Below are positions 4,106 to 28,461 of a stretch of 64,000 nt of DNA, one piece after another (the stretch's first letter is position 1; every line of letters starts with the position of its first letter). The stretch covers positions 11,331-75,330 of the forward strand of contig JAZUCK010000001.1 of the NCBI GenBank assembly GCA_045639065.1, given 5' to 3'. The DNA comes from Alphaproteobacteria bacterium. Lineage in GTDB: Bacteria > Pseudomonadota > Alphaproteobacteria > RF32 > CAG-239. The position numbers and the translations under genes were made by a program. Below the pieces are notes generated by a model, which searched no databases, had not been told where the DNA came from, and saw only the letters and a program-made list of their open reading frames with translations.

Positions 4106-5150
4106 ATCTAATAACCTCGGCTACAGCGTGGAAATGTTCAACAGGTATTTCTTGATCAAGCTCGGTTGATGCAAACAAGGCACGGGCAAGCGGCGGATTT
4201 TCTACGATAGGAATATCGTTGTCTTCAGCCACGGCTTTGATGCGTAAGGCAACAGTATCCACACCTTTTGCCGTTACTTTTGGTGCCGGCATTGTTTCCA
4301 TCTTATATTCTAATGCTACAGCATAATGGGTCGGGTTGACAATAACAACATCTGACTTGGGGACATTTTCCATCATGCGTTGACGAGCTCTATCCATACG
4401 TATTTGTTTTATCTTTGATTTTACTAAAGGATCACCTTCCATTTGCTTATATTCTTCTTTGACTTCTTGTTTGGTCATACGAAGTTTTAGCAAGTGAGAA
4501 TATTTTTGCCAAAAATAGTCGCCTGCCGCAATAACTAATACAGCCATGGTAACGGTAAATAACAGCAAAATAACTATGTCGTGGATAAAGACTAAGATTG
4601 CAAAGGTATCCATTGTAGGTAATAGTTCGCTTTTGGTAATATATGGGCGTAGTACAACGTATGCTAAAATACTTACTACTGTTATTTTTATTATTCCTTT
4701 TATGCTTTCTACGATTTTTTGCTTGTTTATAAATTTGGGAATAGCTGCAAATATATTTAATTTATTCCAATTCGGTTCGAGTTTTTTGGGAGCATAGATA
4801 AATCCTGTTTGGCTTAGGGAAGCAAATATACCTAATATTATAAATATTAGGAAGGGAATTCCCATTACTTTGAAAAATCCGAAGAAGGCTTGTTTTAATA
4901 ATATAATAAAACCGGCAACATCAACATTGGTTGAGGCTGAGCGAGCTATAAAAGATGAACCTATAGTTTTAAGCCATACAAACATTATGGGAATAAATAG
5001 CCACACAACAAAAAGAGTGCCGACAAGCATAATAAAACTTTTGGCATCTTGCGATATGGCAACGTCGCCTTCTTCTTTGGCTTTGGATATTTTTCGTTCG
5101 GAAGGTTCTTCGGTTTTGGACGCTTCGTCTTCTTCTTCGGGGGCTACCAT
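4080..5150 (-). CDS. flhB: Flagellar export apparatus protein FlhB
   Basis: KTEEPSERK N-terminus, KEEYKQMEGDP, NPTH autocleavage motif, ENPPLARAL. Confidence 0.97.
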   Translation of the reverse strand: MVAPEEEDEASKTEEPSERKISKAKEEGDVAISQDAKSFIMLVGTLFVVWLFIPIMFVWLKTIGSSFIARSASTNVDVAGFIILLKQAFFGFFKVMGIPFLIFIILGIFASLSQTGFIYAPKKLEPNWNKLNIFAAIPKFINKQKIVESIKGIIKITVVSILAYVVLRPYITKSELLPTMDTFAILVFIHDIVILLLFTVTMAVLVIAAGDYFWQKYSHLLKLRMTKQEVKEEYKQMEGDPLVKSKIKQIRMDRARQRMMENVPKSDVVIVNPTHYAVALEYKMETMPAPKVTAKGVDTVALRIKAVAEDNDIPIVENPPLARALFASTELDQEIPVEHFHAVAEVIRYVMQLKQQ

Positions 5151-5166: not shown

Positions 5167-5922
5167 TTAATGAGTGAACAGATAAAGCCCTTCGTCAAAG
5201 TATCCTAAAAATACGGATACAATAATCGGGGCGGTTACAAACAATAATCCAATTCCCAAATATATTTGTAAGGGTAAGGATAAAAAGAAAATATTTAATT
5301 GGGGCATCAAGCGCGATACCAGACCGATTGATGTGTAAAATATTATGGTAAAAGCTATAAACGGTGAGCCTAGCTTAAATCCAAAAGTAAATGATTTGGT
5401 CATTGTATCGGTCATATGTGAGGCAAAATCGTTCCATGGGATAGGTTGTCCCGGAACAAATAAATAATAGCTGTCTATAATTGCTTCAAGCATTATGTGA
5501 TGTATATCCATTATAAATACAAGTGTTATGGCGATAATGCTTAAGAATGATTCGATGAGCATTGTTTGATTTTGGAATGTCGGATCAAAAATTTGAGCAT
5601 TGGCAAAGCCGATAGCTTGTGAAGCAATAGAACCGGCTAAGTTTAGAGCGAAGAACAAAAATTGCATTATCATACCTAAAAATATGCCAATGCTTATTTC
5701 ATTTAATATATACTGCACCATAATACTGAAATTTTTCGGTTCTTCGGGAAGCATTGGTGTTATTAAAGGCATTGACACCAATGATACAGCCAAAGCAAAA
5801 ATCAGACGTATTTGTACATTGACATAAGATGCCGAGAATCCGGGTGTCAGCATAAAAATAGTACCCATGCGTAGAAATATCATAAGGTAGGCATATACTG
5901 ATATGTTAAATAATTCCGTCAT
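5167..5922 (-). CDS. fliR: Flagellar export protein FliR
   Basis: Multi-TM protein with IGLVSRLMPQLNIFFLSLPLQI; between fliQ and flhB. Confidence 0.95.
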   Translation of the reverse strand: MTELFNISVYAYLMIFLRMGTIFMLTPGFSASYVNVQIRLIFALAVSLVSMPLITPMLPEEPKNFSIMVQYILNEISIGIFLGMIMQFLFFALNLAGSIASQAIGFANAQIFDPTFQNQTMLIESFLSIIAITLVFIMDIHHIMLEAIIDSYYLFVPGQPIPWNDFASHMTDTMTKSFTFGFKLGSPFIAFTIIFYTSIGLVSRLMPQLNIFFLSLPLQIYLGIGLLFVTAPIIVSVFLGYFDEGLYLFTH

Positions 5923-5929
5923 CTAAATT

Positions 5930-6193
5930 TTATCCACCGGCAATTTTTGAAAAAAGTGAATCTGATAGGGTTTGCATTTGATTATACATAAACGGAAACA
6001 AAACCACTAAAGCTAAAAATACACAAAGAATTTTAGGTACAAATGCCAATGTCATTTCTTGAATTTGAGTCAATGCTTGGAATATACCGATAATAAGACC
6101 GACGGCCAAGGCAATACATACAATCGGGGATACTATTTTTAACAAAGTAAAAATAGCATCTCGTGTTAATTCAAAAATTTCAGCTTCAGTCAT
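5930..6193 (-). CDS. fliQ: Flagellar export protein FliQ
   Basis: GIFQALTQIQEMTLAFVPK signature. Confidence 0.96.
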   Translation of the reverse strand: MTEAEIFELTRDAIFTLLKIVSPIVCIALAVGLIIGIFQALTQIQEMTLAFVPKILCVFLALVVLFPFMYNQMQTLSDSLFSKIAGG

Positions 6194-6199
6194 TTTTCT

Positions 6200-7309
6200 T
6201 TACTCTAGCGGGGTTTGACGTTCAAAATATTTATAATTTTCGATGCCTGTGAAAAATACACCATCGAATCCTTCGCCTAAAATATCTTTAAAGTGGCGGG
6301 ACATTATTTGCTTCCACTCAGGATTCCAATATTGAGTGATAATTCCATCTTTGTTATCAAAGGATTTACGTATAAGCCACTTGGGTGAGCCTATTTTCCA
6401 GTCTTTATGCCAATAATAATTATCAGGAAAGGCTTCGGATACATTAAATTCGGCAATAAGCAGTCTTTTAGAGCCATTCTTTTTGAAATGAAGTTTTTGT
6501 AAATCTTTATTGTCATAACGATATATATTATTAAACAATGGCTTTATAACAATAATGTCATAGTTGGTTTGTAATAAAGTATTTACAAAGTCTTCTTTGC
6601 TTTTGAATTTAGATGTGTCATTTATAATCAAGATATTTTGAGCATCGGAAACTTTGAAAACATTTTGAGCTGAATCGTTGATGTTTATATGGTCATCAAT
6701 ATTGTTGAAGGCATTGTTAATATCAACAAAAAAGTATGATGCTTTTTTTTCTAAAGATGAGTTTATGCGAGCCATTTCCATGGTTTCGTTGTCCGGACAT
6801 TGTTCAATTGTTATAAGACTTAGATTGTGATTTTTTGCAACCTTATTTTCATGGCCTTTTCCGCAATACAGATTATTTACGGCAACTGCATCAACAATAT
6901 TTAAGTAATCATATTCCGGTGTGTAGCGAGAAGGTTCTTGTTCTTCAAAGTTTTTATGAAAAAGGAACGAATCGTCTTGAGCATTTTCTTGAATTCTGGC
7001 GCGGTTATATCCTTCTCTATCGTATTCCCATAGGCTTTTGGTTAGAAGGTCTTGACCTTCGTGGGTAATTACTTGAAAGTCAGCATTTTGTTGTTTGGCA
7101 TATTGTATAAGCATTAGAAGATTTGCGCGCATTTTGGCACGATAGTTATCAATTTTTTGAGGAACTTTACTTAGTTGCAAAATGCGTTCTTCCTTGGTGT
7201 ATGGATTATAGTGGGTAAAACCATATAAACCCGCATCAGCCTTAGTTGTAAAGGCTGATGTAAGAATGATGGTTAAAGCCAATATTTTTATAGATCTAAG
7301 TAACAACAT
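6200..7309 (-). CDS. Exported GH114 / MJ1477-TM1410-like (endo-alpha-1,4-polygalactosaminidase-like) protein
   Basis: Signal peptide; YDIIVI, YYW..W, YWNPEWKQI and GFDGVF segments typical of the family. Confidence 0.6.
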   Translation of the reverse strand: MLLLRSIKILALTIILTSAFTTKADAGLYGFTHYNPYTKEERILQLSKVPQKIDNYRAKMRANLLMLIQYAKQQNADFQVITHEGQDLLTKSLWEYDREGYNRARIQENAQDDSFLFHKNFEEQEPSRYTPEYDYLNIVDAVAVNNLYCGKGHENKVAKNHNLSLITIEQCPDNETMEMARINSSLEKKASYFFVDINNAFNNIDDHININDSAQNVFKVSDAQNILIINDTSKFKSKEDFVNTLLQTNYDIIVIKPLFNNIYRYDNKDLQKLHFKKNGSKRLLIAEFNVSEAFPDNYYWHKDWKIGSPKWLIRKSFDNKDGIITQYWNPEWKQIMSRHFKDILGEGFDGVFFTGIENYKYFERQTPLE

Positions 7310-8915
7310 CAGCTTGTGTTTTTCCTGTTCTTTGAGGTATTTCTGCTACGGTTAATGCTATTTTAGCTAAAGGCGAAACCATATCAAGAGGATTTTGTAA
7401 GATATCATCTTTAGAAAATCTTTCTAAGTATACTCTTATGGTTGCTCCTGATGAGCCGGTACCCGAAAGGCGATATACAATTCGAGAACCATCTTCAAAG
7501 TATATTACAAGTCCGTTTTTGGTAGATGAGTTGTCAACTGGATCATTATAAACAAATGGCTTTGCTTCTTTTATCTTGAAACCATCAAATTCTTTATCAG
7601 TCAGAGAAGGCAATTTGTTTTCTAAATCAGCCATCAATTTGTCGGCAACTGCTGTGTCAACACCTTCAAAGTCAAAGCGAATGTAATAGCTTCGACCATA
7701 TTTTTTCCAGTGTTCAACAGTTATTTCTTCAACAGTTTTATTGGTGTTGGCTAAAATGTTGAGCCAGAATAATACGGCCCAAATTCCGTCTTTTTCTCTG
7801 ATATGTGATGAACCGGTACCAAAACTTTCTTCTCCACAGAAGGTAATGCGATTAGAATCCATAAGATTTACAAAGTATTTCCAACCTGTCGGAACTTCAT
7901 AATATCCGATATTGTGTTCTTTGGCTACTCTGGCAACTGCGGTTGAAGTGGCTGCTGATTTGGCTACACCAAAAATACCTGACTTATAGTATGGTATTTG
8001 TTTGTAATTGTCGGTAAGAATTGCCAGACTGTCATTTGGGGTAACAAAAAATCCTTTACCTAAAATCATATTTCTATCGCCATCGCCGTCATTGGCTGCA
8101 CCAAAGTCAGCGGCTTTGTCAGAGAACATAAAATCAACCAATTCCTTAGCATAAACTAAATTCGGGTCAGGGTGAAGTCCGCCAAAGTCTTGTTTGGGAA
8201 TAGCATTGACAACAGAACCTTTTTTAGCACCTAAGATATTTTCGAATATTTCGATGGCATAGGGTCCTGTTACGGCGTTCATGGCGTCAAAGCGCATGGT
8301 GAATCCGTTAGCAAACATTTGTTTGATAGCGGTAAAGTCAAAAATATTTTGCATCATTTCGACATAGTCTTTTACCGGATCAATAACTTCGATTTGCATA
8401 CCGCAATATTCGGTAGAGCCGAGTTTTGAAATATCTACGTCATCGCCAAGGCAAATTTTGTATTCGCTAATGCTTGTAGTTTGTTTATAAATTGCATCGG
8501 TAACCGAACTTGGAACTTGACCGCCGGTTTCGTTAGAATATTTTAAGCCAAAATCACCGTTTTCACCACCAGGGTTGTGTGATGCCGACAAAATTAAGCC
8601 ACCGTTCAGTTTATTTTTTCTGATTACTACCGAACCGGCCGGAGTTGAAATAAATCCATTTTGACCGATAAGAAGTTTTTTGACACCATTTGCGGCAGCA
8701 ATTTTAATAATTTTTTGAATCGCAATATCGTTATAGAAACGACCGTCGCCACCGACAAGAAATGTTTTTTCCGATAAATTGCCGATTACATTAAAAATAC
8801 TTTGAACAAAGTTTTCAATGTAGTTTTCTTGAAGCACTACTTTAGATTTTTTGCGTAAGCCTGCCGTTCCCATTTTTTGATCAGTGTATGGGGTGGTTTT
8901 TATGGTTGTAATCAT
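7296..8915 (-). CDS. pgm: Phosphoglucomutase
   Basis: GTAGLRKK, SASHNPGG catalytic Ser loop, DGDGDR metal loop, GEESFGTG. Confidence 0.96.
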   Translation of the reverse strand: MITTIKTTPYTDQKMGTAGLRKKSKVVLQENYIENFVQSIFNVIGNLSEKTFLVGGDGRFYNDIAIQKIIKIAAANGVKKLLIGQNGFISTPAGSVVIRKNKLNGGLILSASHNPGGENGDFGLKYSNETGGQVPSSVTDAIYKQTTSISEYKICLGDDVDISKLGSTEYCGMQIEVIDPVKDYVEMMQNIFDFTAIKQMFANGFTMRFDAMNAVTGPYAIEIFENILGAKKGSVVNAIPKQDFGGLHPDPNLVYAKELVDFMFSDKAADFGAANDGDGDRNMILGKGFFVTPNDSLAILTDNYKQIPYYKSGIFGVAKSAATSTAVARVAKEHNIGYYEVPTGWKYFVNLMDSNRITFCGEESFGTGSSHIREKDGIWAVLFWLNILANTNKTVEEITVEHWKKYGRSYYIRFDFEGVDTAVADKLMADLENKLPSLTDKEFDGFKIKEAKPFVYNDPVDNSSTKNGLVIYFEDGSRIVYRLSGTGSSGATIRVYLERFSKDDILQNPLDMVSPLAKIALTVAEIPQRTGKTQADVVT

Positions 8916-16096: not shown

Positions 16097-16170
16097 TGCT
16101 TCGTCGTCTAATGGTAGGACAGCGGATTCTGACTCCGTCAATCTTGGTTCGAGTCCAGGCGAAGCAGCCA
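16097..16170 (+). tRNA. tRNA-Gln(CTG)
   Basis: TGCTTCG/CGAAGCA acceptor stem, anticodon loop TT-CTG-AC, GTTCGA T-loop, encoded CCA. Confidence 0.95.
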
Positions 16171-16455
16171 ACAAAAAAATCCACCTGAAAAGGTGGATTT
16201 TTTTATTGGCTTAAAGGACAAGAACCAAGATTTTGGTTCGGAGCGGATAGTTGGCGAAAACGAGTGTTGAGCTTAGCAAAACGCTTGGCGAAATACGAAG
16301 TTTGAGGCTTACGACGCGAGGAGGACCCGCTTTAGCGGGAGTACCCAGTCCAGGCGAAGCAGCCAATAAAAAAATCCACCTGAAATGGTGGATTTTTTTA
16401 TTGGCTTAAAGGACGAGAACCAAGATTTTGGTTCGGAGCGGATAGTTGGCGAAAA
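16152..16455 (+). repeat. Two ~109-bp direct repeats (16152-16260, 16347-16455) starting in the tRNA-Gln 3' end and including its terminator
   Basis: AGTCCAGGCGAAGCAGCCAA...ATCCACCTGAAA.GGTGGATTTTT...GATAGTTGGCGAAAA repeated with a 195-bp period. Confidence 0.92.
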
Positions 16456-16605
16456 CTAATACATTTTATATCTTCTTTCTAAAACCCTAGACATCTGTTT
16501 TATGTGGAGATAAATTAACGCTTGATTGCTTAGTGTAAATATTGTATGAGTCACACAAAATATAGTTTATAAATATGAAATATGTAATAATGAGGGATTT
16601 TTCTC

Positions 16606-23528: not shown

Positions 23529-24098
23529 TCAATAAGAAGAGTTTTGGTGTTTTTTTAGTTTAGGAAGCACAACATTTTGGAGGTGGTCGTTTTGACTGTT
23601 TTTAATGAATTTTTGAGCCAATTCATCTGTTTTTTTAATAAACTTAGCCGGATTTCCGGCCCAAACTTCGCCATCCGGAATACTTTTGGTTACAACAGAG
23701 CCGGCTCCGACAACGGCATTATCTCCAATTGTAACACCGGACATTATAATGCTGCGACATCCTATAAAAACGTTGTTGCCTACTTTTATGTCATTAAAGG
23801 CGATAACATTTTTTGTGTCTTTATAGTCTATATATTGCAAAGCTCGTAAAAAACTACCGTCATGAGTTAAGAAACAAACATCATAAGAAATCAGACAATT
23901 ATCGCCGATTTCGATTAGAAAAGGCTCTGAGCCGAAATTGGGGTGTCCGACAAATTTGCTGTCTTTGCCGATTTTCACTCCGAGAGAACGATAATATTCA
24001 TTGTTGTCCTTATATTTTTTGTAGCTAAATGTCTTTATTCCCAAAAATTTTATATGAATTTTTCCGTTTGGTTTTAAGACCTTTTCGAATATTTTCAT
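23529..24098 (-). CDS. Left-handed beta-helix (hexapeptide) O-acyltransferase
   Basis: GSEPFLIEIGDNC, FLTHDG, VGNNVFIG, VVGAGSVVTKSIP..VWAGNPAK. Confidence 0.88.
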   Translation of the reverse strand: MKIFEKVLKPNGKIHIKFLGIKTFSYKKYKDNNEYYRSLGVKIGKDSKFVGHPNFGSEPFLIEIGDNCLISYDVCFLTHDGSFLRALQYIDYKDTKNVIAFNDIKVGNNVFIGCRSIIMSGVTIGDNAVVGAGSVVTKSIPDGEVWAGNPAKFIKKTDELAQKFIKNSQNDHLQNVVLPKLKKHQNSSY

Positions 24099-24136: not shown

Positions 24137-25021
24137 TTAATCTATTTTTTGATGTATCAAATTACTTAATTTTGTACCGCCTAGTTCGTTTAAGTGATCA
24201 CAATCCTTAAAATCAATTATTTCGAATAATTCGGAATCGTAGTAATCAATTATGCAAATTTGCGGATGTTGTTTTTGCAGTTTGAATAATTCGCTGAACA
24301 AAACGTTTTTATTCGGCAATAACAGTCTTAAATCTGCACGCATTGGTGGAATTATGACATATAATTTATGATTATTCGCTACGGTATCGCATACAAATTG
24401 TTTTATGTATTCGTGTTGTGATGAATTGCGTCTGTTGTGTTTTAGCCAACGTCTTGCTATTGATGCAACATCACAAATCTCATTTTTATCCTGATAAAAA
24501 CAAGATTTTCCTCTGTAATCATCTGATGTTTCAGCAGGTGTATTTTTTAATATGGGAGAAAGACATCTTTCCAAGTGTTTTAATGATTTCGGAGCTTCTT
24601 CCTGATAGTCTATATCATAAAAAATTTTATAGGGTATACACTTAAATGCTTCATTGGTTTTGCATAATTGAAAACCGGGAGAAAAAGGCGAATAAAATAA
24701 TATAATGTTTTCTAAATTAGGGTGTTTTTTAGCCAACATATATTTATAAAGATTGTACGATATATATAAATCTTGGCTTGAGCCGCCCAAATTGTAGTCA
24801 TTTTGTTTGGGGACAAAACCGTTCATGGCATGAGAAGAACCTAAGATGAGATTTTTTACATTTTTGGCATTAGCTATGTTTTTATATTTTACCGTATCCA
24901 ATCTCATTGTAGGCATATTATTTTTAATAAAAGACTTGCCTATATACTCATAAATTTTAAATCCGAAAAAATAAACCTCTCGCTCGCCGTTTGAGTTCTT
25001 TTTTTTGTAAAAAAGTTTCAT
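24137..25021 (-). CDS. Putative SGNH-fold esterase/acyltransferase in glycan operon
   Basis: ILGSSH block I, DCDHLN DxxH block V. Confidence 0.6.
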   Translation of the reverse strand: MKLFYKKKNSNGEREVYFFGFKIYEYIGKSFIKNNMPTMRLDTVKYKNIANAKNVKNLILGSSHAMNGFVPKQNDYNLGGSSQDLYISYNLYKYMLAKKHPNLENIILFYSPFSPGFQLCKTNEAFKCIPYKIFYDIDYQEEAPKSLKHLERCLSPILKNTPAETSDDYRGKSCFYQDKNEICDVASIARRWLKHNRRNSSQHEYIKQFVCDTVANNHKLYVIIPPMRADLRLLLPNKNVLFSELFKLQKQHPQICIIDYYDSELFEIIDFKDCDHLNELGGTKLSNLIHQKID

Positions 25022-25059: not shown

Positions 25060-26745
25060 TTATTTTGTTGTTTTATTTGGTAGTTTCAACATTTCACCAA
25101 ATTTATAATCCCATGTAACAGGCTCAAATGCATCAGTTCCGTTTCCTGGATAAAATGTCAACTCGCCTATATATAATTTTTCTCCTGTATCAAAAAAATC
25201 AACGCGCACAAAAGGAAATTCTTTGGACAACTTTTGTGCTATCTGCATCATTTCTTCAAAATTATTAGGTTTATTTATTCCATTTGGAGATGGATGAGAT
25301 GTCCATGTAAAAGGCAATTTATTATATTCAGCATCGTAAAAGTCATAACATTTGTTATTGAATCTGTCAGATACAATTAGCATAAATTTTATTTGGTTAT
25401 TAAAGCAATAGAATTTATAATCATACAAATCACCATTAAATTGTTGTAAAAACTCTTCAACAATAATTTTAGGCTCGATATCTTTATATACCCACTCAAA
25501 AAAGCTATAGTAATGATTGTTTTCCGGTTTCATCCAGTTTGATAATTTTTGTTTTGCTTCTTTGATGTCTAATTTTGACTTATCGGTTACGATAATATTT
25601 TGACCGCTACCCCAATTTACTTTGGCAACAAATTTATTCGGTAATGCATCAAAGTCTATTTCATCTGCGGAATTATATATTCCGATAATCGGCACCAAAT
25701 ATTCTTCGCCGATTTTTTCTTTTACATAATCTCTGACACCAACTTTGTCGGCACATTTGGTCATCAATGGGTCACGATAATAAAGCTTCAGCCATTGGAT
25801 TTTTTCGTTAAAAGTTTGAGGATTATCAAGATTCAATTCATAACCGGTTGCCTTTTTGAATTGAACTTCAAGACAATAGCGTATTTCTTCCTCGGTTAAC
25901 CCCTTAAAACGTTTGGCATATATTTTTTTGTATTTTTTATTCTTCTTTTTGTAACTGAATAATTTTATACCAAGCAGATAAATTGTTCTTTTACCGTCAG
26001 GTCCTTTTACCTTCTTGAATATTTTGAAATTAGGGTATTTTAATTTATCTTGGTTGTGTTTTTTTCCGTAGTGATATAAAAAATCTCCATTTTCACGATG
26101 TTCTGTTCCTTTTTCATAAAAGGGCAAGACACTGATATTGTTTTTCCATATTGCATAGTCAAATGATAATTGGTCACGTTTTGAATATTTTTCTATCATT
26201 TGCCACCACAATGACAGAGCATCCTTAATATTGTTATGTCGTCTGAAGATTATGCATGTTTCATGTAGTCCGTTATTAGTAGGATAATTTTCTGTTTTTA
26301 AGTGTTTCATTTCTTCTTTTACGGTTTTTGCGTAATCTATATCGGCACCGATAATTATTTTTGCTTCTTCATAAATGCATGCTCTTGCAGGATGTAACGG
26401 GACACTTATCTGAATGTTGTCAGCCAACATTTTTTCCACTTTATTTATTACATTTGGGGATTTAACAATAATGTTAGCATCAAGCCATAAGCTTGCTTCA
26501 TAGTTTGGAAATAAGATATGTGTGTTTACCTTATGCCATCTGGCATTTTTTACATTTGTTTGCTTATCAAAAACAAGAGGTCTTATTTCCCAGTGACCGA
26601 TGTGCTTCTTTTCAATAAGTTCTTTATTGTCTGTGAAAAACACATAATCCCAATCGTTACTTACAGCTTCGTATTGAGGGATGTCATCATATCCTCCGGT
26701 ACAACATGTATAACAAACTATTTTATGACTGTTTTTTGTAACCAT
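25060..26745 (-). CDS. Fusion of DUF616-like glycosyltransferase and TupA-like ATP-grasp domain
   Basis: YTCCTGGYD, WLDAN, HPARACIYEEA, SKRDQLSFDY; then NPQTFNEKIQWLK, DKVGVRDYV, YDYKFYCFN, RVDF, GELTFYPG. Confidence 0.85.
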   Translation of the reverse strand: MVTKNSHKIVCYTCCTGGYDDIPQYEAVSNDWDYVFFTDNKELIEKKHIGHWEIRPLVFDKQTNVKNARWHKVNTHILFPNYEASLWLDANIIVKSPNVINKVEKMLADNIQISVPLHPARACIYEEAKIIIGADIDYAKTVKEEMKHLKTENYPTNNGLHETCIIFRRHNNIKDALSLWWQMIEKYSKRDQLSFDYAIWKNNISVLPFYEKGTEHRENGDFLYHYGKKHNQDKLKYPNFKIFKKVKGPDGKRTIYLLGIKLFSYKKKNKKYKKIYAKRFKGLTEEEIRYCLEVQFKKATGYELNLDNPQTFNEKIQWLKLYYRDPLMTKCADKVGVRDYVKEKIGEEYLVPIIGIYNSADEIDFDALPNKFVAKVNWGSGQNIIVTDKSKLDIKEAKQKLSNWMKPENNHYYSFFEWVYKDIEPKIIVEEFLQQFNGDLYDYKFYCFNNQIKFMLIVSDRFNNKCYDFYDAEYNKLPFTWTSHPSPNGINKPNNFEEMMQIAQKLSKEFPFVRVDFFDTGEKLYIGELTFYPGNGTDAFEPVTWDYKFGEMLKLPNKTTK

Positions 26746-26747
26746 TT

Positions 26748-27335
26748 TTATTGTTCAACTCCTTTTAATTCAGGATTTTGTTGCAGATATTTGAAGATTA
26801 AGGCCATGGAACAGCCTATCTCATCTGCAATTTGTCGTTTGCTTCTTCCTAATTTGAGCATTTGAGTTATTTTTTGTTTGTTTCGTTCTAATATGGTGTT
26901 TTTACATTTTTTGCCTTTGGGAAAACCAAGAACCGCGCCCTCATTTTTTTTGTCACTTAAGGCTTTTTTGGTTATGGTCGAAACCATAGAATTACGGATA
27001 TCTATTGATAATTTGATACCTTGTATAAGTAATAAGGCTTCTTGTGATGAATTTAGTTTAAGATTTTCTTTGACACTGATTAGTTCAAATCCGTTTGATA
27101 TTAAAAACTCTATATTTTCTACAATTGTTGCCAACTTATTGCCTAAACAGGCGATATTGGCAATGATTAGAGTATTATTTTTTGTATTGATATTGTTTTT
27201 GATACTTTTGATGTCTGTTGCACAAAAAAACACATCAACCGTTTCCATATTTTGTTGGACAGATTGATTTATGACATCCTGTTGATTGTCTACGCTGATG
27301 TTTTTGGGGTTATTGTCTAAATATCCAACAATCAA
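26748..27335 (-). CDS. Serine recombinase (Hin/resolvase) homolog lacking catalytic residues, with C-terminal HTH
   Basis: VGYLDNN replaces GYxRVS; TLIIANIACLGNK replaces TLVVxKLDRLGR; G..LGFP arm and SKRQIADEIGCSMALIFKYL HTH retained; TTG start with GGAGG RBS. Confidence 0.75.
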   Translation of the reverse strand: MIVGYLDNNPKNISVDNQQDVINQSVQQNMETVDVFFCATDIKSIKNNINTKNNTLIIANIACLGNKLATIVENIEFLISNGFELISVKENLKLNSSQEALLLIQGIKLSIDIRNSMVSTITKKALSDKKNEGAVLGFPKGKKCKNTILERNKQKITQMLKLGRSKRQIADEIGCSMALIFKYLQQNPELKGVEQ

Positions 27336-27363
27336 AATTTGCCTCCATCAGTGGAATTTAGAA

Positions 27364-27522
27364 TCTACAAAAACCACCGTTTAAATTTAATAGTAAAATT
27401 CATAATCCAACAAATTTTAAATTGCAAGCAAAAAATCAGAAAACACAGTGGGTTTGCTTAAATTTACTCCTCTCTTGAAAAATAAGCAAATTTGCCTCTA
27501 CAAAAACGGTGGTTTTTGTTGA
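27364..27522. promoter_or_regulatory. Candidate invertible promoter bounded by inverted 26-bp hix-like sites (27364-27389, 27497-27522)
   Basis: 16-bp perfect inverted repeat, complementary AC/GT central dinucleotides, internal -35 TTGCAA / 17 bp / -10 TATGAA on the minus strand. Confidence 0.65.
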
Positions 27523-27538
27523 ACCATCGTTTTTTTTT
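27505..27538 (+). terminator. Plus-strand intrinsic terminator overlapping the right hix-like site
   Basis: AACGGTGGTT-loop-AACCATCGTT-TTTTTTT. Confidence 0.65.
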
Positions 27539-27657
27539 ATATACGTTTAATTAAAACAGCGTGACGAATCTTTAACATTCTGCGTTCCTTTATTTTGAGT
27601 CCTGTAAACATAATATTTAAAATTTTTACTCAATGTAATTTTTTTTTCATTTAAAAA

Positions 27658-27708: not shown

Positions 27709-27963
27709 ATGCAAGATATTTCTGATTTAATCAAAGAAGCAAAACCTTTGTATCACAAACGAAAAAGACAAAGACGCATTGTCAAATCGGCATTGGCCGG
27801 TGTGGCATGTTTGTTCTTGGTCTTTGTAAATATGCCAAGTTATCAGATGGTTGATGATTTTTATAATCCTTATTTGGATTACGGATTTCAAGAAAATCAG
27901 GAAACATATGTTGAAAATCTCGGCTTGCCGGTTGATGATTACGGATTGCTTTTGGTGAGCTAG
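27709..27963 (+). CDS. Small single-TM protein, possible anti-sigma or ECF-associated protein
   Basis: Basic stretch, one TM helix; stop abuts the sigma start; RBS AAAGGAG. Confidence 0.55.
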   Translation: MQDISDLIKEAKPLYHKRKRQRRIVKSALAGVACLFLVFVNMPSYQMVDDFYNPYLDYGFQENQETYVENLGLPVDDYGLLLVS

Positions 27964-28461
27964 ATGAGAAATATCATTGAACAAAATAAGGGCTTGATAA
28001 AAGCCATAATCAAAAAAATTACCGGTTCGTATAATGACGATATCGAACAAGAGGTCTATATCAAAACTTGGAAAAATATCGATAATTATAAAGAAAGCGG
28101 AAAGTTAAAATCTTGGATTGCCACGATTACAGCCAATGTTTGCAGAGATTATTTTAAGTCGTCATCATATAAACAGAATATGCGTGAAGTGAGAGATGAA
28201 AGTGTTTTAGAAAACAAAGCTATTTTGGCTTCACAAGAAAAAGTTATAGATGCGAAAAAAAGGCAAAAAATAATCTTAAAAGCAGTTGATGAGTTGCCGT
28301 ATAAAATGCGAAAAGTTGTGATTTTGTTTGAATTTGAAGATTTTACTATCGCTGAAATTGCAAAGAAACTTGGCGAGCCGGAAGGAACTATTAAATCAAG
28401 ACTTTATAATGCAAGAAAAGTCTTGGCTGAAAAATTAAAATTTTTACTAGGAGAAAAATGA
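27964..28461 (+). CDS. ECF RNA polymerase sigma factor
   Basis: DDIEQEVYIKTW, SWIATITANVCRD (region 2), EIAKKLGEPEGTIKSRLYNARK (region 4). Confidence 0.92.
   Translation: MRNIIEQNKGLIKAIIKKITGSYNDDIEQEVYIKTWKNIDNYKESGKLKSWIATITANVCRDYFKSSSYKQNMREVRDESVLENKAILASQEKVIDAKKRQKIILKAVDELPYKMRKVVILFEFEDFTIAEIAKKLGEPEGTIKSRLYNARKVLAEKLKFLLGEK

Follow-up and report, generated by a model that had tools for sequence, protein, structure and literature searches.

The window analysed here is a 64,000-nt stretch of DNA from an uncultured gut alphaproteobacterium (contig JAZUCK010000001.1, positions 11,331-75,330 of the forward strand; GCA_045639065.1, Alphaproteobacteria; RF32; CAG-239), and our subject is a short promoter-bearing segment bounded by inverted 26-bp sites, together with the gene directly behind it (hereinafter designated pseudo-Mpi). 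Judged by its residues and family matches, the product of this gene is a catalytically dead, full-length paralogue of the Mpi-type serine invertases. An earlier reading of the same DNA without database searches (hereinafter the sequence-only reading) had described an intact open reading frame (ORF) with a GGAGG ribosome-binding site (RBS) abutting a glycosyltransferase gene, and this description holds: the stop codon of pseudo-Mpi lies 2 nt before the next gene, and the motifs are as quoted. The protein starts with MIVGYLDNNPKNIS, carries GYLDNN where GYxRVS is expected, and, within ANIACLGNKL of its motif-C region, carries NIACLGN where the LDRLGR motif is expected.

The Pfam and NCBIfam matches of the protein are weak yet specific. 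In Pfam, Resolvase (PF00239) scores 19.2 bits against a cutoff of 23.3 and is sub-threshold, and HTH_7 scores 15.5 bits against 23.8 (E 0.019). The best and sole recombinase-family match in NCBIfam is the Mpi family, NF009949, which covers the full length (E 7.5e-21) at 74.7 bits against a cutoff of 272. Neither scan returned a NusG-like (UpxY) or UpxZ family, the matches being mainly to recombinase and helix-turn-helix (HTH) families with a few marginal unrelated ones. The domain layout comprises a resolvase-like N-domain, a long E-helix (residues 98-131) and a three-helix HTH (residues 148-186). An AlphaFold2 (AF2) model built on 30 relatives (predicted local distance difference test score, pLDDT, 82.6) likewise contains a beta-alpha-beta core, the long helix at 98-131 and a three-helix HTH. 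Foldseek searches with this model give as top, full-length matches Sin (2r0q, 5e-8), gamma-delta resolvase (2gm4/1gdt) and Tn3 resolvase (5cy2), in the range 5e-8 to 1e-6, and a family profile run against the PDB also matched the HTH of Hin. The resolvase fold, the E-helix and the C-terminal HTH are all present in the predicted structure; by score thresholds and catalytic residues the protein stands outside the serine-recombinase and Mpi families, while the fold is retained. These profile and structure comparisons, which the sequence-only reading had proposed, agree with its picture of a dead protein of resolvase fold but place it closest to Mpi, not Hin. The exact product has no record in the contig index, and tblastn with pseudo-Mpi, Hin and gamma-delta resolvase detects neither a paralogue nor an active serine recombinase in the window.

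A genuine Mpi gene encoded beside a related switch (locus L014, 5077-5673; motifs GYIRVST and SEISRLGR) scores 312.5 bits against the NF009949 cutoff of 272. In BLASTP the window protein aligns with this enzyme end to end at 27% identity (E 6e-15, N-terminal gap 0), and the alignment replaces R8 by D7, the catalytic Ser by N9, R68 by C63 and R71 by N66 (Tn3 numbering for the canonical residues, here and below); A62 takes the place of the D67 equivalent, a position at which the L014 enzyme itself has Ser. Of Y6, R8, S10, D36, R68 and R71, only Y6 is retained in the window protein, and the S39-R45 loop is deleted. A study of Tn3 resolvase (PMC2794168) reports that mutating any of these six residues nearly abolishes cleavage and that none of 14 mutations strongly inhibited binding to site I. 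Since such catalytic mutants still bind, pseudo-Mpi, in which these residues are replaced, can by analogy plausibly bind DNA despite their loss.

The losses extend across the family. For the residue census, six intact Mpi proteins were aligned with 118 relatives, each 180 aa or longer. Y6 is retained in 115 of 115 aligned sequences, and Q19 is invariant as well; R8 is Asp in 115 of 115. The nucleophile position (Ser10) holds Ser in 82, Asn in 30, Gly in 2 and Cys in 1. A 10-residue deletion removes the S39-R45 loop from all 118, the D67 equivalent is Ala in 109, R68 is Cys in 110, both R68 and R71 are lost in every member, and E118, R119 and R125 of the E-helix read Arg, Asn and Ile in the alignment. 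Because the residues crucial in Tn3 resolvase are gone, the catalytic apparatus is absent from the whole pseudo-Mpi family, and the Ser retained by many members is no rescue. The sequence-only reading had held that orthologues with the catalytic Ser would reduce the case to a strain-specific lesion. The Ser is indeed common among the relatives, where the window protein has Asn, but the loss is not strain-specific, since R8, the S39-R45 loop, D67, R68 and R71 are gone throughout the orthologues.

Could pseudo-Mpi still be an active recombinase with a non-canonical active site that flips its own switch? The 82 relatives with Ser at the nucleophile position and the invariant Y6 and Q19 would fit such an enzyme, as would the occurrence in both orientations of the window and L022 loci, which, like L004, have no invertase nearby. 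The enzyme would, however, have to work in the window with Asn at the nucleophile position, and in all members with Asp for R8 and without the loop, R68 and R71; genuine Mpi genes are present in the same metagenome-assembled genomes (MAGs); and in the OFF state there would be no protein to bring about the return to ON. Judged by sequence, pseudo-Mpi is unlikely to catalyse inversion, and we consider a non-canonical enzyme very improbable.

The pseudo-Mpi gene evolves under purifying selection, the ex-catalytic domain included. Pairwise ratios of nonsynonymous to synonymous substitution rates (dN/dS; Nei-Gojobori, NG86) are 0.1-0.3 for the gene and 0.06-0.17 for the ex-catalytic N-domain, at dS 0.4-1.5, and the former motif positions are occupied by new near-invariant residues (D7, N60, ANIACLG and IRNSMVSTIT; IRNSMVSTITKKAL). 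The scores below the Pfam and NCBIfam thresholds might suggest a decaying duplicate retained only as a leader ORF, with no function at the protein level. This constraint contradicts such decay, more than 118 relatives, some as little as 43% identical, keep an intact frame, and new invariant motifs stand in place of the old, leaving this explanation with hardly any credence. The earlier view of a gene maintained rather than decaying stands, and neutral decay is not seen in the orthologues.

Upstream of pseudo-Mpi, an inverted repeat with 19-nt arms (95% complementary, 121 nt apart) forms part of two hix-like sites (Table 1), and the 16-nt core of the repeat occurs in exactly two copies in the 64 kb, in inverted orientation. 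The central dinucleotides, AC in the proximal and GT in the distal site, are mutual reverse complements, a requirement of inversion sites, and the segment measures about 145 bp between the crossover centres. The outer half-site of the proximal site is also found in L001, L003, L004 and L022-L026. The promoter-like element P1 points toward the pseudo-Mpi gene, the window representing the ON configuration. The switches align well when put in a single orientation, with a promoter-like element about 20 nt from one end; it takes the form TTGCNT-N17-TATGAA at a conserved position in L001, L003 and L007, and its -10 element is TATAGA in L004. P1 is presumably active as a promoter. The proximal site is separated from the start codon by 28 nt, including the RBS. 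Because the sole recognisable promoter lies inside the segment and this distance is so short, pseudo-Mpi should, by geometry, be made only when the switch is ON.

On the distal side, a third, degenerate repeat copy at 27522-27534 pairs with the distal arm in a hairpin of -16.2 kcal/mol (z -4.1). Together with its run of nine T residues, this hairpin may serve as a terminator that halts outward transcripts of the OFF state before the divergent genes for extracytoplasmic function (ECF) sigma factors (27709-28461). The hairpin-terminator of the window is not conserved at other loci. Inside nearly all class-2 switches, 20-30 nt from the distal end in the ON configuration (about 27470-27482 in the window), lies a TTTTTCAAAAG-like motif that could be a site for an architectural protein or the -35 element of a weak outward promoter. 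Two further candidates were set aside. The 11-nt direct repeat AAATTTGCCTC (27335-27345 and 27488-27498), considered as a duplicated RBS, is treated as coincidence because its second copy is a continuation of the inner half-site (GAGGC...) and relatives have different sequences around the RBS. A second outward promoter, TTGAAA-N18-TACAAA, is not claimed, its -10 element being without the conserved final T and not conserved in L005 and L022.

Table 1. Features of the pseudo-Mpi locus, in coordinates of the window
Feature	Position	Strand	Description	Basis
Cargo gene 3	23529-24098	-	189 aa; hexapeptide-repeat O-acetyltransferase, WbbJ/WcaF-like	
Cargo gene 2	24137-25021	-	294 aa; no family match	
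Cargo gene 1	25060-26745	-	561 aa; TOD1/MUCI70 glycosyltransferase-like (E 8.9e-15) and TupA-like ATP-grasp (E 3.4e-60)	Pfam
pseudo-Mpi gene	26748-27335	-	195 aa; TTG start	ORF translation, NCBIfam, BLASTP, AF2/Foldseek, residue census, dN/dS
Shine-Dalgarno GGAGG	27342-27346	-	6 nt upstream of the TTG start	read from sequence
Proximal 26-bp hix-like site	27364-27389		TCTACAAAAACC-AC-CGTTTAAATTTA; inverted-repeat arm 27364-27382	
Interior of invertible segment	27383-27503		121 bp; ON orientation in the window	
Promoter-like element P1	27399-27427	-	-35 TTGCAA (27422-27427), 17-nt spacer, -10 TATGAA (27399-27404)	
Distal 26-bp hix-like site	27497-27522		TCTACAAAAACG-GT-GGTTTTTGTTGA; near-perfect 11-bp palindromic arms; inverted-repeat arm 27504-27522	
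Terminator-like hairpin with T9	27502-27543	+	distal repeat arm and third copy AACCATCGTT	terminator scan, RNA fold

The 26-bp sites flank a truly invertible promoter, both orientations of which occur in nature. A 745-bp contig from another sample (L027), encoding a protein 97% identical to that of the window, starts inside the switch; over its first 110 nt it agrees at 109 positions with the window switch inverted in silico, and over its first 45 nt it agrees with the inverted configuration at 45 of 45 positions, compared with 23 of 45 for the window configuration. In two MAGs with common flanks (L005 and L013), BLASTN aligns positions -183 to -34 in reverse at 95% identity. The segment of L022 is likewise inverted relative to L023, L024 and L026, whose proteins are the same or 98% identical, and both flanks are common to L022, L024 and L026. 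With the window's own switch found flipped in L027, the proposal that pseudo-Mpi is the first gene behind a switch bounded by hix-like sites has been upheld.

A homologue search returned 127 proteins that are 43-70% identical, the few named ones coming from 'Alphaproteobacteria bacterium' gut MAGs. Among GTDB species representatives we found 13 loci, all of the same kind and one of them in Candidatus Scatocola faecigallinarum; each MAG holds two to three pseudo-Mpi loci. Enough upstream DNA for reading was available at 12 of 14 loci (the 13 from GTDB and the window). A clear repeat pair, enclosing 101-130 bp and ending 21-64 nt before the start codon, is present at 11 of these 12, and the twelfth, L009, has a degenerate pair, which bears out the co-occurrence with hix-like sites that the sequence-only reading had proposed to check. 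The contig of L006 begins exactly inside the proximal repeat, which resembles an assembly break. The repeats fall into two classes, ACAAAAACCACCGTTT-like and AACGAACG-like. A DNA-first search with a gapped pattern of the ACAAAAACCACCGTTT-class inverted pair recovered three metagenome loci, each with a gene of the pseudo-Mpi family directly after the pair; an exact 24-mer spanning the proximal flank and the repeat had 0 matches in JGI metagenome contigs.

BLASTN comparisons between loci show homology that begins just outside the distal repeat and ends at the pseudo-Mpi stop codon. L003 and L004, which come from different genomes and have unrelated flanks, are homologous over -201 to +572 at 93.8%, and the window and L001 over -207 to +572. 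Because homology ends at the distal repeat and at the stop codon, the switch and the dead paralogue make up one portable module, inherited as such ahead of varied cargo operons. The cargo genes of the window are listed in Table 1; those at other loci encode GT2 glycosyltransferases, nucleotidyltransferases and SIS/CBS proteins. In IMG/VR, whose viral contigs contain 0 pseudo-Mpi relatives, phages do not carry the family. Elsewhere in the window, behind a tRNA-Gln gene (16097-16170), a direct repeat about 105 nt long (~16155-16262 and ~16350-16457) duplicates the 3' end of the tRNA, its terminator hairpin and downstream sequence; this region (16097-16457) looks like what an integrated element leaves behind at its att sites, or like a duplication of local origin.

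Similar proteins are found well beyond these loci. When the family profile was run with HMMER against 1.84 billion representatives, 42 clusters fell below 1e-30 and 566 below 1e-10; among the best 150 clusters, about 100 are without both the R-x-S and R-x-G-R motifs, and none carries a name. Two further subtypes that were checked (P0270 and P0284) each lie behind a repeat-flanked segment, and a fourth subtype, P0298, comes from an alphaproteobacterial MAG, its matches beyond about 40% identity being genuine Mpi of Bacteroidota and Oscillospiraceae. P0284, a distant dead-Mpi subtype of 186 aa present on 151 contigs, is located behind 21-nt inverted repeats 84 nt apart. At L019, L020 and L021 the repeats (4858-4983) and the P0284 gene (5001-5561) are followed by cas1 (5658-6563) and an array of clustered regularly interspaced short palindromic repeats (CRISPR; 6619-7644, 66-bp period), and cas2 and cas9 are encoded convergently on the opposite strand; this locus may represent a phase-variable adaptation gene.

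Intact Mpi-family genes adjoin many of the switches, as revealed by tblastn with the L014 enzyme. They lie upstream in tandem at L002/L014-L017, L009, L011, L012 and L023 and divergently at L003, L007, L008 and L013, and all encode the motifs GY(I/C)R(V/I)ST and SE(I/L)SRLGRN. Broken divergent copies are found at L005 (5507-5731, an 85-aa C-terminal remnant) and at L010 (5308-5733, a copy without the HTH). At loci with a divergent Mpi, the invertible promoter in its OFF orientation points at the Mpi gene, and one promoter may there drive the invertase and the dead paralogue alternately. No Mpi gene lies nearby at the window (64 kb), L004, L022 or L024. The sequence-only reading had postulated a trans-acting invertase as partner; this fits the window, which has none in the vicinity, but falls short for the family, in which the partner often adjoins the switch in tandem or divergent arrangement. 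At the four loci without a nearby Mpi gene, an enzyme encoded elsewhere would have to act in trans, in the manner of Mpi in Bacteroides fragilis (PMC12632263).

Three further observations concern the adjoining invertase genes. In numbers too small to carry weight, the loci with a broken divergent Mpi (L005 and L010) were assembled ON and those with an intact one (L003, L007, L008 and L013) were all assembled OFF. A 30-bp palindrome, CTTATAAATAGTTATGTAACTATTTGTAAG, occurs at L013 (5741-5770), L003 (2228-2257) and L008 (about 5770-5800) and also at L005, L007 and L010; it changes symmetrically between loci, overlaps the Shine-Dalgarno sequence of the divergent Mpi gene, and could be an operator or a hairpin that sequesters this sequence. 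Ahead of the tandem Mpi gene at L014 (324-4971) and L015 (54-3801) lie an HU-family gene and a set of tail-like genes (DUF1833, NlpC/P60, GpJ-like), the latter resembling the end of an alphaproteobacterial gene-transfer-agent or prophage cluster. An HU gene beside an invertase that works on a very short segment may be no coincidence.

Pseudo-Mpi retains the recombinase fold, the long oligomerisation helix, a basic linker and the HTH. We tentatively prefer, with slightly less than even confidence, the reading that it is a non-catalytic paralogue made only in the ON state and feeding back on inversion. An ON switch would give rise to pseudo-Mpi, which would feed back on its own switch by occupying the 26-bp crossover sites; alternatively, it would form unproductive mixed dimers or tetramers with active Mpi via the conserved E-helix. 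Inversion would thereby become orientation-dependent, most likely through a slower ON-to-OFF reaction that provides a memory for the ON state, and, being diffusible and faced with the same sites at several loci per genome, pseudo-Mpi could lock other switches in trans as well. A role in the recombination complex is favoured over a plain HTH repressor because the N-domain is strongly constrained and the gene is co-inherited with the switch.

A number of points weigh against this feedback reading. Site binding, locking, poisoning and autorepression, the activities proposed by the sequence-only reading, are all putative. The window contains no active invertase, and the partner of its switch is assumed to be encoded elsewhere in the genome and to act in trans. 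The assembled orientations have no ON bias (about 8 loci ON versus 10 contigs OFF), and the tandem and divergent placements of Mpi imply opposite regulatory logic, such that no single circuit suits all loci. The C-terminal HTH comes in two types, A and B, neither of which follows the repeat class; both are found with TCTACAAAAACC-type sites. The same switch precedes a gene of type A in L013 and one of type B in L005, the homology of the two genes stopping at codon ~132, and the type B domain is similar to the HTH of Mpi enzymes of the other class. Recognition of the crossover sites by the HTH would require one half-site to be read by two diverged HTHs, and the independence of HTH type from repeat class weakens the simple idea of each protein reading its own sites.

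HTH type and repeat class being uncorrelated, co-evolution of each protein with the sites at its own locus was dropped as an explanation. Pseudo-Mpi genes are mosaic: L001 and L013 have a dS of 0.03 in the C-domain and 0.82 in the N-domain, and L005 and L013 have 0.49 in the N-domain and 1.75 in the C-domain. The breakpoint in the highly conserved region coding for the E-helix may be a recombination hotspot that shuffles downstream cassettes. At several loci the second operon gene consists of tandem Mpi-type HTH modules only (L014, 6550-7548, and also L015-L018), and HTH matches are found at L011 (6992-7114) and L013 (7139-7255) as well; the window locus is without a tandem-HTH gene. The L014 protein has about six modules in 332 aa, its best NCBIfam match being the CRISPR repeat-binding protein Cbp1; representatives of the tandem-HTH type reach 12 matched stretches (P0185, 831 aa), and P0014 is a pseudo-Mpi with a duplicated HTH.

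The HTH findings bear on the main rival, a transcription factor without any link to recombination chemistry, which would repress its own promoter or repress or activate other glycan loci, a role akin to that of UpxY/UpxZ of Bacteroides in limiting simultaneous surface glycans. Pseudo-Mpi precedes glycan genes in first position as upxY/upxZ do in Bacteroides (PMC12632263), many loci have the second, regulator-like tandem-HTH gene directly after it, and its C-terminal HTH has been swapped independently of the switch. The proximal site, moreover, would cover about +5 to +30 of the inferred transcript, and a dimer bound there could form a roadblock. On the other hand, the non-DNA-binding N-domain is the most conserved part (omega 0.06-0.17) and would be superfluous in a plain HTH repressor, the gene travels with the switch and not with the cargo, and Pfam and NCBIfam give no sequence relation to NusG-like UpxY. 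Taken together, we judge a purely transcriptional role unlikely, with a real minority chance of being correct.

The feedback reading has a narrower form to which we also assign well under an even chance, namely that pseudo-Mpi is a dedicated anti-invertase, binding the common crossover sites or capping Mpi. Its own switch would be frozen ON and others OFF, in a winner-takes-all manner, and at divergent-Mpi loci the single promoter would alternate between the invertase (OFF) and its dead antagonist (ON). If true, this would define a new class of pseudoenzyme regulator of site-specific recombination, one that split into many subtypes within a single gut lineage and came to stand before glycan operons and, in the case of one subtype, before cas1.

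The opposite effect, that of an accessory or architectural subunit aiding inversion, is clearly improbable in our estimate. Pseudo-Mpi would in that case be an ON-only directionality factor that speeds the ON-to-OFF reaction in a FimE-like manner, by analogy with the non-catalytic resolvase dimers at res sites II/III or Sin site II. The retained oligomerisation helix and HTH fit such a subunit, and a segment of ~145 bp is very short for a serine-invertase synapse and probably requires DNA-bending helpers; the HU-family gene directly upstream of the adjoining Mpi gene in L014/L015, the conserved TTTTTCAAAAG motif inside the switches, the third half-site copy beside the window's distal site and the many loci assembled OFF point in the same direction. 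By contrast, a regularly spaced array of accessory sites was not found in or beside the switch, the OFF-to-ON inversion must run without pseudo-Mpi, and the proposal is an inference throughout.

We found no description of a dead or inactive recombinase paralogue inside an inverton in the literature searched, and the sequence-only reading knew of no circuit laid out in this way. According to a survey of gut communities, an inverton's promoter does not, as a rule, drive the recombinase genes in its vicinity (PMC11892184). Invertible glycan promoters are already known, and what appears to be new here is a conserved dead invertase paralogue as the first gene of an Mpi-type switch. At every readable locus of the family, the first regulated gene is a recombinase-derived one that is dead, selected and inherited with the switch. 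The question at stake is what sets locus-specific ON and OFF rates at invertible promoters. If pseudo-Mpi modulates inversion, it would offer phase variation a simple and portable means of memory and mutual exclusion, and synthetic recombinase circuits a natural anti-recombinase part. Uncultured gut Alphaproteobacteria also run a Bacteroides-style multi-locus surface-variation system.

A close known counterpart is formed by B. fragilis Mpi and its invertible capsular-polysaccharide promoters (Coyne et al. 2003, as summarised in PMC12632263 and PMC10403206). Common to both are an Mpi-family invertase (312.5 bits to NF009949 for the neighbour enzyme here), short promoter segments flanked by inverted repeats ahead of surface-glycan operons at several loci per genome, and regulatory genes at the head of each operon. 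The differences are that the host here is an alphaproteobacterium, not a member of the Bacteroidota, that the first gene is a dead Mpi paralogue where B. fragilis has UpxY/UpxZ, that the invertase gene often adjoins individual switches, and that the repeats belong to the ACAAAAACCACCGTTT and AACGAACG classes. UpxZ (PMC12632263, PMC10403206) is likewise a small, ON-only regulator at the head of a phase-variable glycan operon that may act on other loci. The resemblance is positional only, since UpxZ has no relation in sequence or fold to pseudo-Mpi, and UpxZ acts on transcription antitermination, not on DNA or a recombinase.

Recombinase-fold subunits in a regulatory, non-catalytic role are known from res II/III of Tn3 and gamma-delta and from Sin site II, and the Sin regulatory complex (2r0q) is the top structural match of the pseudo-Mpi model. 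In those systems the same active protein fills both roles, whereas here the candidate is a separate, permanently dead paralogue, and the array of accessory sites was not found. In the control of fimS by FimB and FimE in Escherichia coli, the supply of a recombination protein depends on the orientation of the switch, which makes switching direction-dependent. FimE is a catalytically active tyrosine recombinase, and the mechanism is mRNA stability; orientation-dependent supply of a recombination-related protein is shared, and no dead paralogue is involved there. Hin/hix and Gin/gix, finally, share with the present system a small serine recombinase with a C-terminal HTH and 26-bp sites in which two half-sites of about 12 bp surround a 2-bp centre, and the A-tract half-site TCTACAAAAACC of the window resembles the hix sequence, TTATCAAAAACC. 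In Hin and Gin the gene of the active invertase lies inside a segment of ~1 kb or longer that is assisted by a Fis-bound enhancer, whereas here the segment is only ~145 bp and does not contain the linked gene, which is dead.

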